Assembly (NCBI GenBank): GCA_963785075.1
Contig: CAWATW010000004.1
Coordinates: forward strand, 338,516-402,515
Reading direction: 5' to 3'
Source of the DNA: an uncultured bacterium
GTDB taxonomy: Bacteria; Actinomycetota; Acidimicrobiia; Spongiisociales; ZC4RG35
DNA: 64,000 nt
Shown here: piece by piece, positions 6,943 through 37,599 of the stretch
How positions within the stretch are numbered: position 1 is the stretch's first letter
Layout: each line of letters begins with the position of its first letter
Program-made: the position numbers and the translations under genes
Notes under the pieces: model-generated
Databases searched by the model: none
What the model was told of the DNA's origin: nothing
The model's input: only the letters and a program-made list of their open reading frames with translations

Positions 6943-8174
6943 TGATCCCTCCCTTGATGGGCTCGACCCCCGTCCCAGAGAGCACCGACCAGCCCGGCGA
7001 GGGGTTCGCGAACGCGATGGCCGCGGCCTTGGTCATGGTGACGCCGCCTCCCGCCGCTCCGCCGGCTACGTCGGTTGCGTCGGCCCCGTCGACCGGCCAG
7101 GACGGGGCGTCCGCCCCGGCGCCTGCGATTCCCCCCGGTTCCAGGCTCACCGTCCCCGCCCCTGCACCCTTCACGACGATGCCGGACCAGATCGCCCGTC
7201 TGGCGACGCCGACCTCGCCTGAACACGACGCGGATCTGGGCCAGGCCGCCGGTTCGATGGTTGCTTCCGCCGGAAACCCGACGCGGCTCGCGACCGCCGG
7301 AAGCACGACACCCGTCGTGACCCCCGCGGACCCGGTGCCGTCCCCACCGACGGACCTAGAGATGATCGAGCGGCCGCCAGGACACGTCGAGTTGGTCGAG
7401 CCGCCCGCTGCGCCCACGGAGGAACCGGCCGAAGTGGTGACCCCCGATGTGATCACCGAGCTCACGACGGCGGAAGCAACCGCAGAGGTGCCCCGCCCGG
7501 CCGTGGTCACATCGCCGACGGCTCCGCCCCGCGTCGAATCCCCGATGCCCCTCACACGCCCCGCAGGCGAACCAACGGCGCCTGCGGTCATGCCATCGAA
7601 CGGTCCACGGCCCGAGGTTCCGGTCGCCGCGGAAGCCGTCACACCGCACGTCGGTGCCGACCCTGCTCCGGCCACGACCCCGACGAGCAGCGAGAGCGTC
7701 TCGGTCCCCGACGCCGGTCCCGTTGAACCCGCCCGCCAGGCGGAACTCCCCGGACGCGAACCGGTCGAGACGACCACGTCCGTCGCAGCTGCCGAGCCCG
7801 CACCCGGCCACACCTCGGGCGTTTCCTCATCCGAGCCTCAGGCCGCTCCCTCGTCGGCGTTGCGCAGGGTGGAAGAAGCCGTACGGCGTCTCGAGAACGC
7901 TGCTCCGCCGCGGACGATCACCGTCACCGTCGACGACCACGGACTGCATCGTGTGACCGTGAGCCTGATGTCCGATGGGGTCAGGCTCACGGTTCCAGAC
8001 GGCGCAACCACCGATCCCCAGTTGGTCGCCGACATGGAGCGTGCACTCGAGAGCCGTGGTTTCGACATGAGCGGTCGCCGGCGCGGCGGGAGCCCCGACC
8101 AGACCGATGATGCCGGCGACTTCGTTCCGACCCAGGCGCAGACACGCCGTACCGACGCCGGATACCGGCTTTGA
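6942..8174 (+). CDS. fliK: flagellar hook-length control protein FliK (Pro/Ala-rich)
   Basis: Extended P/A/T-rich linker and a C-terminal ..TITVTVDDHGLHRVTVSLMSDGVRLTV.. hook-length-control-like domain. GGAGG RBS 9 nt upstream. The start overlaps the SLT gene stop. Confidence 0.65.
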   Translation: MIPPLMGSTPVPESTDQPGEGFANAMAAALVMVTPPPAAPPATSVASAPSTGQDGASAPAPAIPPGSRLTVPAPAPFTTMPDQIARLATPTSPEHDADLGQAAGSMVASAGNPTRLATAGSTTPVVTPADPVPSPPTDLEMIERPPGHVELVEPPAAPTEEPAEVVTPDVITELTTAEATAEVPRPAVVTSPTAPPRVESPMPLTRPAGEPTAPAVMPSNGPRPEVPVAAEAVTPHVGADPAPATTPTSSESVSVPDAGPVEPARQAELPGREPVETTTSVAAAEPAPGHTSGVSSSEPQAAPSSALRRVEEAVRRLENAAPPRTITVTVDDHGLHRVTVSLMSDGVRLTVPDGATTDPQLVADMERALESRGFDMSGRRRGGSPDQTDDAGDFVPTQAQTRRTDAGYRL

Positions 8175-33941: not shown

Positions 33942-34634
33942 ATGCAACCGGAGGTAGTCGTGGACATCGAGGGCAGGAGCTTCCTCATCGCGGGCGCATC
34001 AGGCGGGCTCGGTGGCGCCATTGCAACCGAGCTCGAGGGGCGAGGCGCCCACCTCGTGCTCACCGGTCGCGATCGAGAACGGCTGGCAACGGTCCCGGTC
34101 GAGGCAGAACGGTTCACCATCGATCTACGGCTCCCGGAAGCGGCCGCTCAGGCCGTCGGACGGGCACATGCCGTCCACGGGCGCCTCGATGGCGTGATCA
34201 ATGCGGCGGGAGTCGTCGCCTTCGGGTGGTCCGCCGCCACCGACCCGGACACCGTCGAGGAGCTCTTCCTCACGAACACGTTCCTCCCGATCTTCCTGTT
34301 CGACGCTGCCGCGAGCGCGATGTCGGGGGGCGGGGTGCTCGTGAACCTCAGCGGCGTCGTCGCAGAGCGTCCGACGGCCGGCATGGCCGCCTATTCCGCA
34401 TCGAAGGCGGCGATCGCCGCCCACCTGGTGGCACTGCGCAAGGAACTCAGACGACGGAACATCGCCGTCGTCGATGCCCGTCCCGGGCACACCGAAACCG
34501 ACTTGTCACGCCACCCGATCGCCGGGTCCGCTCCCCGACTGGGCGACGGCATCGACCCGGCCGCGGTGGCGCGTCGTATCGCCGATGCCATCGTGGCCGA
34601 CGAGGAAGACCTGGGTCCAGACGCCTTCGGGTGA
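33942..34634 (+). CDS. short-chain dehydrogenase/reductase (SDR)
   Basis: ..FLIAGASGGLGGAIA.. is the TGxxxGxG motif. ..AYSASKAAIAAH.. is the YxxxK motif. Confidence 0.8.
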   Translation: MQPEVVVDIEGRSFLIAGASGGLGGAIATELEGRGAHLVLTGRDRERLATVPVEAERFTIDLRLPEAAAQAVGRAHAVHGRLDGVINAAGVVAFGWSAATDPDTVEELFLTNTFLPIFLFDAAASAMSGGGVLVNLSGVVAERPTAGMAAYSASKAAIAAHLVALRKELRRRNIAVVDARPGHTETDLSRHPIAGSAPRLGDGIDPAAVARRIADAIVADEEDLGPDAFG

Positions 34635-34654
34635 ACGGCGCCGTCAACCGGCCG

Positions 34655-34984
34655 TCACCACTCCTCCACGGGCTCCTGCTGCTCCAGCCACTGCGCATCC
34701 ATGCGCGCACGCATGTCGCGGTAGGAGTCGCGTCGCTTCCAGAACTTCGTCTTCCACACCTTGAACCGACGGCTCTGCACGGGCACCTGTTCGAGCGGTT
34801 CGTGTTCGTGCGTCCGCTTCACCTGCGGCAATGGGTCGAGCTCATCGGGATCCGCAAGAGTATGCAACATCTGGTTTGCGGTGTGGCGAGCACGACGGTG
34901 CTCGAGCCTGCGCTCTTCACGGCTGGGACGGACGTCGTCGTAGCCGCGGTTGACGGTGCGGTTTTCACGGGATCGGCGGGCCAT
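34655..34984 (-). CDS. hypothetical highly charged small protein
   Basis: ORF only (MARRSRENRTV..FKVWKTKFWKRRDSYRDMRARMDAQWLEQQEPVEEW). No family recognised. Confidence 0.25.
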   Translation of the reverse strand: MARRSRENRTVNRGYDDVRPSREERRLEHRRARHTANQMLHTLADPDELDPLPQVKRTHEHEPLEQVPVQSRRFKVWKTKFWKRRDSYRDMRARMDAQWLEQQEPVEEW

Positions 34985-35106
34985 GGACACTCCTGGGATC
35001 GACGTTGGTGGACCTGGTCGACGGTCACTCGATCGGAGGAGCTCGCTCCATCTCTGACAACGTACCACCTCCGGTCACCGTATGAAGGGTCCATCGTCAC
35101 CGACTA

Positions 35107-35180
35107 CCCCCGGACGGGTTTTCGCGCACAAAAGGTGCGCTATTCACGCATTTCGTGCGCGAAAACACGATCCCGTCTCC
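35107..35180. repeat. copy 1 of a ~70-bp hairpin-containing direct repeat (17-bp arm gacgggttttcgcgcac ... gtgcgcgaaaac[acgat]cccgtc)
   Basis: About 97% identical to 36575-36643. The right arm is interrupted by a 5-nt insertion. Inner palindrome gcgcac-aaaag-gtgcgc. Confidence 0.7.
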
Positions 35181-35193
35181 TGCTGATACCGTG

Positions 35194-35207
35194 GTACTAC
35201 GTAGTAC
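35194..35207. promoter_or_regulatory. perfect 14-bp palindrome GTACTACGTAGTAC 42 bp upstream of padR, nested in the ccgtggt..accacgg inverted repeat; candidate PadR operator
   Basis: Directly read. PadR-family proteins autoregulate through palindromic operators. Confidence 0.4.
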
Positions 35208-35248
35208 GTATTACACTCCAGACCACGGTAGACAACCCGGGAGGAGAG

Positions 35249-35572
35249 ATGGATACGACCCAGGTACTCAAAGGGGTGCTGGACACCGCCGTGCTTGCAG
35301 TTCTGGCGAAGGCGAGCACATATGGCTACGACCTCGTCCGCCAGCTGCGTGAAGCGGGGCTCGAGGATGTTGGGGATGCATCCGTCTACGGGACGCTGCG
35401 ACGACTCTTCTCAGGTGGCTACCTGACGTCCGAGATCGTTCCCTCGGACGAGGGGCCTGCCCGCAAGTACTACGGCATCAACGCCGCCGGCCGCGACCTG
35501 CTCGCTCGCTCGACCAAGACGTGGAACCACCTGTCGAGTGTGATGAACGATCTGTTGGAGGAAGTCGCATGA
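35249..35572 (+). CDS. PadR-family transcriptional regulator
   Basis: ..LKGVLDTAVLAVLAKASTYGYDLVRQLREAGL..DASVYGTLRRLFSGGYLTSEIVPSDEGPARKYYGINAAGRDLL.. is the winged-HTH PadR signature. GGGAGGAG RBS. Confidence 0.85.
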   Translation: MDTTQVLKGVLDTAVLAVLAKASTYGYDLVRQLREAGLEDVGDASVYGTLRRLFSGGYLTSEIVPSDEGPARKYYGINAAGRDLLARSTKTWNHLSSVMNDLLEEVA

Positions 35573-36574
35573 GCACTACCACTCTCTTCCCCGCCGCCGT
35601 CGCATTCCTCGATCAGGTTCGCGAGCTGCTCGGCGACCTCACCGACGAGGACCGCGAGGAGGTGATCCAGGACCTCGAGGCGCACCTTGAGGATCTCGGC
35701 GTCACCAGCATCGAGCAGTCACTCGGCACCGCGGAGGCCTTCGTCGACGAGTTCCGCGCCAGCGCTGGGTTGTCCGCCGACAGCACCAAGCCTCGGGGAA
35801 GGGTGTCGACGCTCGTCGATGGGGTCGTAGATCGATGGATGGCAAGCTGGGAGCATCCTGTGATTGCGCAGCTGAACAAATTGACCGAGCCATTGAGGCC
35901 GGCATGGCCCTGGATCAGGGCGTGGCTCGCGCTGATGCTCGTCGCCTTCGGCACAGCGTGGGACGGAGTCGTGTTCCGGCGATTCCCCATTCCGAGTGTG
36001 AATGGGAGCGCGGTGACCGGTCTCGCGGCACTGGCGCTGGTCACCTGGATCTCGGTCACCGCCCAGCGCCGAGGACACCGGACTCGTCGCTTGACCGGCG
36101 GCATCCTCAATCTCGCCGCTGCGATCGCAATCCTGATCGGGGTGTTCGCACCATATGCCTTGATGACGTCGTGGGCGGCAAACAGCTACCAGCATCAGGA
36201 CACCGTTACCGCCTACGGAGGACTGGTCGGACCGTACGGCGACATCTCGAACATCCACGCATACGACCGTGACGGAAACCCGGTGGAAGTGTTGCTCTAC
36301 GACCAGGACGGCAACCCGCTGAGCAGTGTCCCAGGACGTGTACTTCATCGACGTCGGACAGATGGGCGACTCGTGGGGCGCCGTCAGATTCGGCACCGAC
36401 GCCTACGGCCAGCCGATCACCAACCTCTTTCCGCTCGAACGATTGGGCGAGATCTGGACCAACGGGACGGTGAGCTACGACGAGTTGCCTCCTCCGCGCG
36501 TCGCCCTGCCAGATCTCGGGGTACAAAGGGCCAATACGGTTCCGTCGACGATCGTCATCCCACCCGTCGACTGA
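35569..36574 (+). CDS. PadR-associated membrane protein (DUF1700-like N-terminus), apparently interrupted by a +1 frameshift near 36320-36330
   Basis: ATG overlaps the padR stop. Frame 1 reads plausibly up to ..LLYDQDGNPLSSVP. Frame 2 then reads plausibly (..DVYFIDVGQMGDSWGAVRFGTDAYGQPITNLFPLERLGEIW..) as far as the TGA at 36572-74. Confidence 0.45.
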
Positions 36575-36643
36575 CCCCCGGACGGGTTTTCGCGCACAAA
36601 AGGTGCGCTATTCACGCACTTTGTGCGCGAAAACCCGTCTCTG
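36575..36643. repeat. copy 2 of the ~70-bp repeat with an intact perfect 17-bp inverted repeat gacgggttttcgcgcac-N25-gtgcgcgaaaacccgtc, between convergent stops
   Basis: Directly read. Lies exactly between the + gene stop (36574) and the folK-fusion stop (36646). Confidence 0.7.
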
Positions 36644-36645
36644 GG

Positions 36646-37599
36646 TCACCAGATGACGGGGATGAATCGGCGCGGGACACGGACCCGGTATGACGAGTAC
36701 TCGGGATGGGCGAGCGTGAGGGCACGTTCCTCCATGCCCGACTTGTAGCGGAACAGCACAGCCAGCGCGATCAGCGGCACCAGCGCCCACGACGACGACA
36801 AGGTGATCGAGGCACCGACACCTCCGAGCAGGAGTCCGCCGTAGATGGGATGTCGCACCATCCCGAACACGCCACGCTGCACGAGGTTGGCGCCGGGACG
36901 GGGATCCGGCAGTGCCGAAAGGTCCTTTCCCAGAGCCAGCAGGGCGCCGACCGCGAGGAATCCGCCGAGCGCAGCCACAGCCACGCCCAACGTGAGCCGC
37001 CATGCCACCGGCTCGAGGTCGCCCGTGAACACCGCAATGGAGGCAAAGACGAGAAACAGGACGAACTGCAGACCCACGAGAACATGACCGAGCGTTCCAA
37101 GCCGGGGCTGATCGACAACCCAATGACCGGCCCAGCGGAACACCCCGCCCGGCGGTACCGCGGCCAGCGCTGCGGCCGCCGACAGACCGGACGAGACCAT
37201 CACGTCGGGTGCGATCTCGGCAACCGGTTCGAGCACGAAGCGGCGCTCGATCGCCCTGGGGTGCGGCACTACGAGCGCGGGCTCCTCGATGACCTCGTCG
37301 CCATGGCAGATCAAGTCGATGTCCAGCGTTCGCGGTCCCCACTGGATGTCCCGTACACGCCCGGCCTCTCGTTCGATCGCCAATACCGCATCGAGAAGAC
37401 GACGCGCCGACAGTTCCGTATCGATCAAGACGGCAGCATTCAGGAAACGGCCTTGGACAGGGCCACCCACCGGGTCGGTCTCGTAGAGCGACGACACCGC
37501 GACGACCGAACCGAGTTCGCCGATGCGCAACACCGCGGTCCGCATGTGCTCGAGGCGATCTCCGATGTTCGAGCCCAGCGCCAGGATCGACCTCGTCAT
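36646..37599 (-). CDS. folK: HPPK (FolK) fused to a C-terminal ICMT/PEMT-like membrane methyltransferase-family domain
   Basis: N-term MTRSILALGSNIGDRL..LYETDPVGGP..PRTLDIDLI is the HPPK signature. C-term ..RHPIYGGLLLGGVGASITL..EERALTLAHPEYSSYRVRVPRRFIP resembles the isoprenylcysteine carboxyl methyltransferase / phospholipid methyltransferase family. Single continuous ORF. Confidence 0.7.
   Translation of the reverse strand: MTRSILALGSNIGDRLEHMRTAVLRIGELGSVVAVSSLYETDPVGGPVQGRFLNAAVLIDTELSARRLLDAVLAIEREAGRVRDIQWGPRTLDIDLICHGDEVIEEPALVVPHPRAIERRFVLEPVAEIAPDVMVSSGLSAAAALAAVPPGGVFRWAGHWVVDQPRLGTLGHVLVGLQFVLFLVFASIAVFTGDLEPVAWRLTLGVAVAALGGFLAVGALLALGKDLSALPDPRPGANLVQRGVFGMVRHPIYGGLLLGGVGASITLSSSWALVPLIALAVLFRYKSGMEERALTLAHPEYSSYRVRVPRRFIPVIW

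Follow-up and report, generated by a model that had tools for sequence, protein, structure and literature searches.

The locus described here lies in a 64,000-nucleotide (nt) stretch of DNA from an uncultured bacterium of the class Acidimicrobiia (contig CAWATW010000004.1; the whole stretch is hereafter called the window), in which a two-gene module is bracketed by two copies of a long hairpin repeat. The first gene of the module, padR (35249..35572, plus strand), encodes a 107-amino-acid (aa) PadR-family winged helix-turn-helix (wHTH) regulator, which matched Pfam PF03551 at 62.9 bits (cut-off 27). Its stop codon overlaps, in an ATGA, the start of a gene for a HAAS-domain membrane partner (35569..36574, plus strand), a protein of 334 aa after one C is removed. 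On the left flank, a minus-strand gene (34655..34984) encodes an Arg-rich conserved 109-aa protein of no Pfam family, referred to below as the small protein; on the conserved right flank, a minus-strand gene (36646..37599) encodes FolK fused to a PEMT/ICMT-like methyltransferase (FolK-PEMT, 317 aa). The assembled partner gene is shifted by +1 through an extra C in the CCC run at 36330–36332, and the called 374-aa open reading frame (P0001) runs through the downstream hairpin into the end of folK; deleting one C from this run gives the 334-aa reading frame. Because two independent short-read Logan contigs (ERR12037369 and ERR15459714) encode an identical PadR and an intact 334-aa partner, and because the source is a long-read-type assembly (a 939,859-bp contig), the frameshift is probably a homopolymer error of the long-read assembly.

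Hairpin copy 1 (35106..35180, no strand assigned) lies in the spacer between the divergent starts of the small-protein gene (ATG at 34984, minus strand) and padR (ATG at 35249, plus strand), i.e., upstream of padR as originally predicted. Copy 2 (36574..36645, likewise without strand) is intact and wholly occupies the 71-nt gap between the partner TGA (36572–36574, in the corrected frame) and the FolK-PEMT stop codon that abuts it (36646–36648, minus strand), so the predicted position exactly between convergent stop codons was borne out in that frame. A repeat search of the window aligned 35106–35169 with 36574–36637 as an ungapped direct repeat of 64 nt with 95% identity and 3 mismatches. When a 5-nt ACGAT indel present only in copy 1 was allowed, the similarity extended through CCCGTCTC to about 72 nt in total. 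The 5-nt indel of the original prediction was thus recovered, whereas its figure of about 97% identity was too high. The repeat period, i.e., the module plus one hairpin, is 1468 bp. A repeat-derived 25-mer with up to 3 mismatches was found at two sites only in the 64-kb window, namely the two copies (0.00 expected from shuffles), and the 11-nt arm TTTTCGCGCAC, with up to 1 mismatch, was confined there to the four arms of copies 1 and 2. The PadR and membrane-partner genes are therefore bracketed by the sole two copies in the window, as had been claimed.

Copy 2 was predicted to fold at −66.8 kcal/mol (z = −11), with an outer stem of 20 bp paired throughout, a bulge of 2 nt, an inner stem of 5–6 bp (GTGCG/CGCAC), and a 7-nt CTATTCA loop; the stem had earlier been described as perfect, which it is, and as 17 bp long, which is short of the length given by the predicted fold. 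Copy 1 is degraded by 3 substitutions and the ACGAT insertion in its right arm, and its predicted fold is weaker (−35 kcal/mol, z = −4), the right arm being mismatched. An Rfam scan of 34500–37200 returned sub-threshold matches only, to sodF small RNA (33.9 bits, gathering score 46) and to two plant/animal microRNA families, and these identities were rejected as sub-threshold, generic long-hairpin matches. Around copy 2, an inverted symmetry at 36555–36665 (46-nt arms, 78%) reaches about 20 nt past the hairpin into the final codons of both convergent genes (TCATCCC...TGA in each). When homology beyond the element was sought, between the left flanks of the two copies or as a mirror image of the 3′ end of folK, local-alignment shuffles yielded p values of 0.03, 0.02, and 0.58; these values are not robust after five tests, and such homology was not used further. 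The inverted symmetry, at p of only about 0.02–0.03, may reflect chance.

The same hairpin occurs elsewhere. A scan of 185,579 species-representative genomes for both 11-nt arms with a free loop between them returned 40 loci, the closest set of which came from the metagenome-assembled genome (MAG) MFD09779.bin.1.214, labeled "uncultured bacterium," with 10 exact-arm copies on three contigs. An eleventh copy in this MAG, carrying the compensatory arm changes TTTTGGTGCAC/GTGCACCAAAA, was recovered by blastn-short on the fetched loci, so that it holds at least 11 copies in both orientations, 3 of them reversed. Orthologous DNA of the window and this MAG shared 92.4–92.8% identity (about 7.4% difference), by which the MAG is judged to represent a sister species of the window organism; homologues of the window proteins carry the label Acidimicrobiia. 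Hairpins at nonorthologous loci of the sister MAG showed 96.7–98.3% identity to window copy 2, and given the 92.4–92.8% of the orthologous flanks, the hairpins are better conserved than the genome average.

Positions and bulges were counted in a set of 12 copies from the two genomes at 11 loci, all of them intergenic. The 2-nt bulge was on the same arm in 10 of the 12 copies and a TATTCA loop core was present in 11, and the family consensus reads approximately CCCAGACGGG-TTTTCGCGCAC-AAAAGGTGCG-CTATTCA-CGCACTTT-GTGCGCGAAAA-CCCGTCTGGG, with the conserved outer sequence (CCC)AGACGGG-TTTTCGCGCAC. Of the 12 copies, 10 have a stop codon no more than about 30 nt away, and 4 lie between convergent genes. 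Two lay in divergent spacers, window copy 1 and the copy at locus L013 of the retrieved set, and the idea that copy 1 alone lies away from a gene 3′ end was rejected accordingly. Neighboring genes encode aconitase, E1 and E2 dehydrogenase components, acyl-CoA synthetase, an ABC-2 transporter, FAA hydrolase, and LigD prim-pol. Short-read contigs of further related samples (L051 and L053–L055) end inside the hairpin on either side of the locus, as is expected of a repeat. No family member was found by a family-specific pattern scan of JGI metagenomes, in viral contigs, or, with the hairpin and the cassette as blastn queries, in plasmids and phages, which gave only weak matches to padR genes; the single JGI match (L041), a low-GC, A/T-flanked terminator, was rejected as a chance match. 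In the family alignment, 90% of cells were paired and 3 pairs changed on both sides (67 of 500 shuffles equaled this), a result that carries little weight either way because exact arms had been a condition of the search that yielded 10 of the 12 copies. The hairpin is thus a low-copy family of dispersed extragenic palindromes, resembling repetitive extragenic palindromes (REPs), in an uncultured Acidimicrobiia genus. Of the options first raised, that of a REP-like element or MITE (miniature inverted-repeat transposable element) gained support from this dispersed family, present in both orientations beside unrelated housekeeping genes.

A second gene between two direct hairpin copies was observed in the sister MAG (L026, 3441–4528). 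It encodes a 320-aa protein with AbiEi_4 and MTES_1575 restriction endonuclease (REase)-like matches and lies between aconitase and molybdopterin oxidoreductase genes; the left copy carries the compensatory arm changes and contains the stop codon of the gene.

The check proposed at the outset, for a relative that lacks the PadR module and holds one repeat copy, found its match in the sister MAG. At locus L012 the order is SDR (plus), small protein (minus), one hairpin, folK-PEMT (minus), folB, a 161-aa protein gene, folP, and ftsH, which equals the window arrangement minus the 1468-bp unit, with no other rearrangement. The left flank of this hairpin aligned with the left flank of copy 1, and its right flank with the right flank of copy 2. 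The hairpin itself (1282–1329) is a perfect 21-bp palindrome without the bulge and with an inverted TGAATA loop that is 1 nt shorter, unlike the 11 other family copies; a sister-like contig (L053) has the usual loop orientation at the same site. Its sequence looks like the product of an intrahairpin template-switch (arm-copying) event.

The direction of the event was indicated by a more distant relative. The closest homologue of the partner (P0002, 49% identity) shares a 3880-bp contig (L042) with a FolK-PEMT homologue, and because this contig overlaps another (L056) at 100% identity, the two belong to one organism. Its gene order, small protein (minus), padR (plus), HAAS partner (plus), folK-PEMT (minus), and folB onward, is that of the window in both order and orientation. 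Neither the 15-nt spacer between the HAAS and folK genes nor the 418-nt spacer between the small-protein and padR genes, however, contained a family hairpin, the shorter one containing no hairpin at all. Within the longer spacer, blocks conserved with the window lie on either side of the copy 1 position: on the left, the small-gene leader GCTCGCTCCATCTCTG.AACGTACCAC, and on the right, an operator-like GATACCG...TACT.CGTA.T.CG.A.TAC followed by the Shine-Dalgarno sequence GGGAGGAG. Identity to the window proteins was 88% for PadR, 82% for the 161-aa protein, 77% for the small protein, 67% for FolK-PEMT, 63% for FolP, 55% for FolB, and 48% for the HAAS partner. As this relative shares the gene order and the conserved blocks without the hairpins, the module predates the hairpins at the locus, and as the module is ancestral, the single-hairpin site of the sister MAG most likely records a deletion and not the state before an insertion. 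Half of the outcome originally named as a refutation, an identical arrangement without repeats in relatives, was observed in L042/L056.

Taken together, we consider it likely that the hairpins are dispersed REP-like elements, that the padR-HAAS pair is ancestral at this locus, and that the sister lineage lost the pair by a hairpin-to-hairpin deletion. This reading draws on the dispersed family, its bias toward gene ends, the ancestral synteny, the precise single-copy scar, and the decay of copy 1. The padR and HAAS partner genes would have stood at the locus before the hairpins as a self-contained two-gene signaling unit with its own operator. Hairpins, spreading by a transposition-like process, would then have come to flank each side of the pair, one copy apiece, in the ancestor that the window species shares with its sister, and the two direct copies, 64–72 nt long and 1.4 kb apart, would have offered a short homology for deletion. 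The sister lineage most likely lost the 1468-bp unit, exactly and with a single hairpin remaining, when the direct copies recombined by a RecA-dependent route or replication slipped between them. In RNA, the hairpins probably serve as orientation-independent 3′-end structures, either a terminator or an exonuclease barrier, to judge from their placement, and copy 1, having no gene 3′ end to serve, would have decayed.

Several observations weigh against this account. The sister hairpin, with its inverted loop and perfectly complementary arms, does not result from simply joining parts of copies 1 and 2, so an extra template switch is needed. The full hairpin has no 3′ U-tract, as its T/A runs pair inside the stem. 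No transposase was found among ten hairpin-adjacent genes scanned with Pfam, all metabolic or unassigned and not a genome-wide set, nor did a mechanism of spreading emerge from them. The bracketed gene at L026 could hint at a cassette-like process. Finally, the module is patchily distributed: it is present in the window species and in L042/L056 and absent from the sister MAG, from L048 (FolK about 60% identical), in which the small-protein gene directly follows folK-PEMT as it also does in the sister MAG, and from L046 (about 60%), which has other genes there, and it was not seen within the 377 nt available downstream of folK in L045 (FolK 74%). An ancestral module therefore requires several losses. 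In L046, a more distant relative, a perfect palindrome unlike that of the window and about 50 nt long comes after the folK-PEMT 3′ end, CCAACTGGGGTCAGAATCGACCGC-TA-GGCGGTCGATTCTGACCCCAGTTGG (6963–7030), and lineage-specific long hairpins seem to recur at the end of this gene.

Alternatively, a circular unit of padR-HAAS plus one hairpin could have entered a resident hairpin downstream of folK in the window lineage, by Campbell-type homologous recombination or through an integron-like hairpin-specific recombinase, duplicating the hairpin; the sister MAG would then hold the true empty site. We regard this integration as doubtful. It would account for the fact that the site without the module holds exactly one hairpin between otherwise undisturbed flanks, and for a degraded copy 1 in a 5′-5′ spacer, as expected of a by-product copy, but the L013 copy also lies in a divergent spacer, and copy 1 is no unique oddity. 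The AbiEi_4/REase-like gene of L026, between two direct copies each with self-consistent arms, would fit as well; both of its hairpins, however, are also at the 3′ ends of neighboring genes, and as related hairpins bracket a DAHP synthase gene in another MAG (L025), bracketing can arise merely from hairpins following gene ends. The 2-nt bulge on the same arm of 10 of the 12 copies superficially resembles the extrahelical bases of integron attC sites, whose core sites RYYYAAC/GTTRRRY are absent from the hairpin as read from its sequence: its stem base reads GGGTTTTCGCG / CGCGAAAACCC, and GTTTTCG and CGAAAAC do not fit GTTRRRY and RYYYAAC. Two Logan contigs of 1498 and 1445 nt, near the 1468-nt period, contain the module only, but breaks in the de Bruijn graph where 45 nt of the repeat are exact would account for these sizes just as well, and a free circle was not accepted on this basis. 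Moreover, the module has its own regulator and operator and is not a promoterless open reading frame, and no plasmid, phage, or viral copy was found. In L042/L056, the module sits at these very junctions in an unchanged orientation, with conserved flanking and operator blocks and without any hairpins, and an independent insertion at the identical site is very unlikely. The mobilizable cassette among the original suggestions thus gains no support.

Hairpins with related arms were also found in other lineages. Multicopy families of 44–48 nt that share the 11-nt arms but not the inner stem are found in Acidimicrobiia SMAG_U6704, Acidimicrobiaceae SRP284430_co1_175, MAGs labeled Acidobacteriota and Planctomycetota, and Lentzea sp. 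NBRC 105346; as the scan required exact arms, this sharing across lineages may be partly an ascertainment effect. In the 48-nt families (Acidimicrobiia, and Actinomycetota- and Acidobacteriota-labeled), a stop codon lay within 0–19 nt of, or overlapped, the 14 scorable copies. One such family, a perfect palindrome TTTTCGCGCACCGAATGCGCGC-TATA-... with the outer arms of the window family, sits 0–19 nt after stop codons at L003, L019, L021, L022, L025, L028, L030, L031, L038, and L040, in other Acidimicrobiia and Actinomycetota-labeled MAGs, and at L025 two of its copies flank a DAHP synthase/chorismate mutase gene. The 48-nt hairpins at L002 (7831–7878) and L014 (299–346), from Acidobacteriota- and Actinomycetota-labeled MAGs, respectively, differ by 1 mismatch after reverse complementation; either the element crosses phyla or one bin is mislabeled. 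A perfect palindrome of about 98 nt, centered on a hairpin at the very start of a contig (L016, 60–157) and with flanks that are exact reverse complements including a stop codon, is probably an assembly fold-back artifact. In Lentzea sp. NBRC 105346, several copies of an element of about 1.6 kb (L029, 2331–3941; L035, 4124–5770; L007; and L017) have 92-nt terminal inverted repeats, 99% complementary, that contain a hairpin with TTTTCGCGCAC arms. As read by eye from its translation, this element would encode a frameshifted product, with a DUF222-like protein and an HNH endonuclease in two overlapping frames, and so would resemble REP13E12.

These families invite a broader reading, in which hairpins with TTTTCGCGCAC...GTGCGCGAAAA arms would form a superfamily of stop-adjacent palindromes whose arms are perhaps recognized by a protein, and in which paired hairpins would make the enclosed genes excisable and reintegratable. 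We give this the same low probability as the integration of a circular unit. Candidates for the arm-recognizing protein would be the nucleases whose genes such hairpins bracket, the DUF222-HNH protein of the 1.6-kb Lentzea element and the AbiEi_4/REase-like protein of L026.

Less probable still is the absence of any mobility, in which ordinary gene-end terminators would have become similar through selection for one optimal sequence or through gene conversion, and the two copies of the window would be separate neighboring terminators. Most copies do abut stop codons, and in another Acidimicrobiaceae MAG (L025) the DAHP synthase and lgt genes, two consecutive housekeeping genes, each end in a related hairpin of 48 nt. 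A terminator scan gave one terminator-like match, the inner stem with the CTTTTG that comes after it on the minus strand; the full hairpin, however, is followed by no U-tract. Furthermore, convergence would not be expected to yield 96–98% identity over about 60 nt, including loop and bulge, at unrelated loci of two species 7.4% apart; copy 1 and the L013 copy are at no gene 3′ end; and the lack of a hairpin at the orthologous L042/L056 positions implies that the elements were inserted. The bidirectional terminator first suggested is partly supported, by position, with 10 of the 12 copies near stop codons and 4 between convergent genes, and not by the sequence after the full hairpin. Least probable is that the bracketed module was misplaced or chimerically joined at the repeat during long-read assembly: the source contig is long (939,859 bp) and the homopolymer frameshift is a typical long-read error, but the two independent short-read assemblies contain the identical PadR and partner genes and both end exactly 29 nt past the partner stop, inside copy 2, and the same gene order is found in another organism (L042/L056).

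The favored reading, dispersed REP-like hairpins with a deletion between two of them, was compared with known repeat systems. REP, BIME, and REPIN elements of Proteobacteria are repetitive extragenic palindromes mobilized by RAYT transposases (PMC3337134). The window family shares with them short, GC-rich, imperfect extragenic palindromes that are multicopy, dispersed in both orientations, overrepresented where genes end or converge, and better conserved than their surroundings; each of its arms also holds a small palindrome, GCGCAC-N3-5-GTGCGC, so that the whole resembles an inverted REP doublet. It differs in its low copy number (about 11 copies in about 2.1 Mb of match-bearing sister-MAG contigs versus hundreds), in having no GTAG-type 5′ motif when this was tested, in the spacer of only about 7 nt between its half-palindromes, and in the lack of a RAYT or other transposase among the ten hairpin-adjacent genes, a set short of a genome-wide search. 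Repeats of the REP kind are known substrates for deletion. To our knowledge, no REPs or similar elements have been described in Acidimicrobiia, and literature searches for such repeats in this class and for the arm motif found nothing relevant.

Correia elements (CREE) of Neisseria are 100–155 bp long and have defined terminal inverted repeats, a TA target duplication, and hundreds of copies. The window family resembles these and other MITE-like, terminator-forming repeats as dispersed intergenic inverted repeats that would form long transcript hairpins with a possible effect on termination or RNA processing. It is, however, essentially one hairpin, the whole element being the inverted repeat, and no target-site duplication was established: no direct duplication is visible beside the copies, the hairpin-free sites of L042/L056 are too diverged to define one, and no parent insertion sequence was seen. 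Integron attC sites and gene cassettes, including chromosomal arrays such as VCRs, likewise have small gene units between imperfect palindromes that are asymmetrically bulged, and the filled and single-copy states seen here resemble cassette insertion and excision. The hairpin nevertheless lacks the R″/R′ core motifs and forms no array, most copies being singletons beside housekeeping genes, and no intI was seen, although no search was aimed at it; the bracketed unit, furthermore, brings a regulator and operator of its own and was ancestral here rather than inserted. With core motifs absent and the module ancestral and self-regulated, the hairpin is not an attC site. Of the features of Rho-independent terminators, 10 of the 12 copies show the position after a stop codon, and only the inner stem with CTTTTG on the minus strand matched the terminator scan. 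We would class the hairpins as a new REP-like family in Acidimicrobiia and the loss of the module as an ordinary deletion mediated by repeats.

The bracketed genes match the HAAS-PadR dyad, which has been proposed as an alternative to two-component signaling (PMC11237479). As in those dyads, a standalone PadR-like wHTH gene is translationally coupled to the gene of a membrane protein with an N-terminal HAAS domain, here partner residues 13–59; the score of this domain was just under the cut-off (Pfam PF22564, 26.1 bits, cut-off 27), and most of the listed homologues carry PF22564 as a precomputed domain. The transmembrane segments of the partner were judged by eye, and its C-terminal extracytoplasmic part, unlike those described, matched no family. 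Upstream of padR, a perfect 14-bp palindrome, GTACTACGTAGTAC (35194..35207, no strand), lies within the operator-like block shared with the hairpin-free relative L056 and is a candidate PadR operator. Nothing ties the dyad functionally to the hairpins. In another Acidimicrobiia MAG (L049, 5678–6981), a homologous dyad (PadR 78% and partner 36% identical) lies with an amidohydrolase gene between nuoD and nuoE-like genes, where it appears to break up the respiratory complex I gene run. The fusion of FolK (HPPK) to the PEMT/ICMT-like methyltransferase is common to more than 90 homologues, the named ones of which are all labeled Acidimicrobiia.

The finding is of modest value. It puts on record a palindromic, REP-like family in a class, Acidimicrobiia, that is mostly uncultured, and provides a clean natural example of two repeat copies that allow a HAAS-PadR dyad to be deleted in a single step, as seen between two sister species. 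Genome scans should also be read with care, for an "empty site" with one repeat in a close relative is no proof of insertion: the more distant relative here places the module first. If a shared recognition protein does explain the conservation of the arms across lineages, these hairpins could lead to a new mobilization or 3′-end-processing system.

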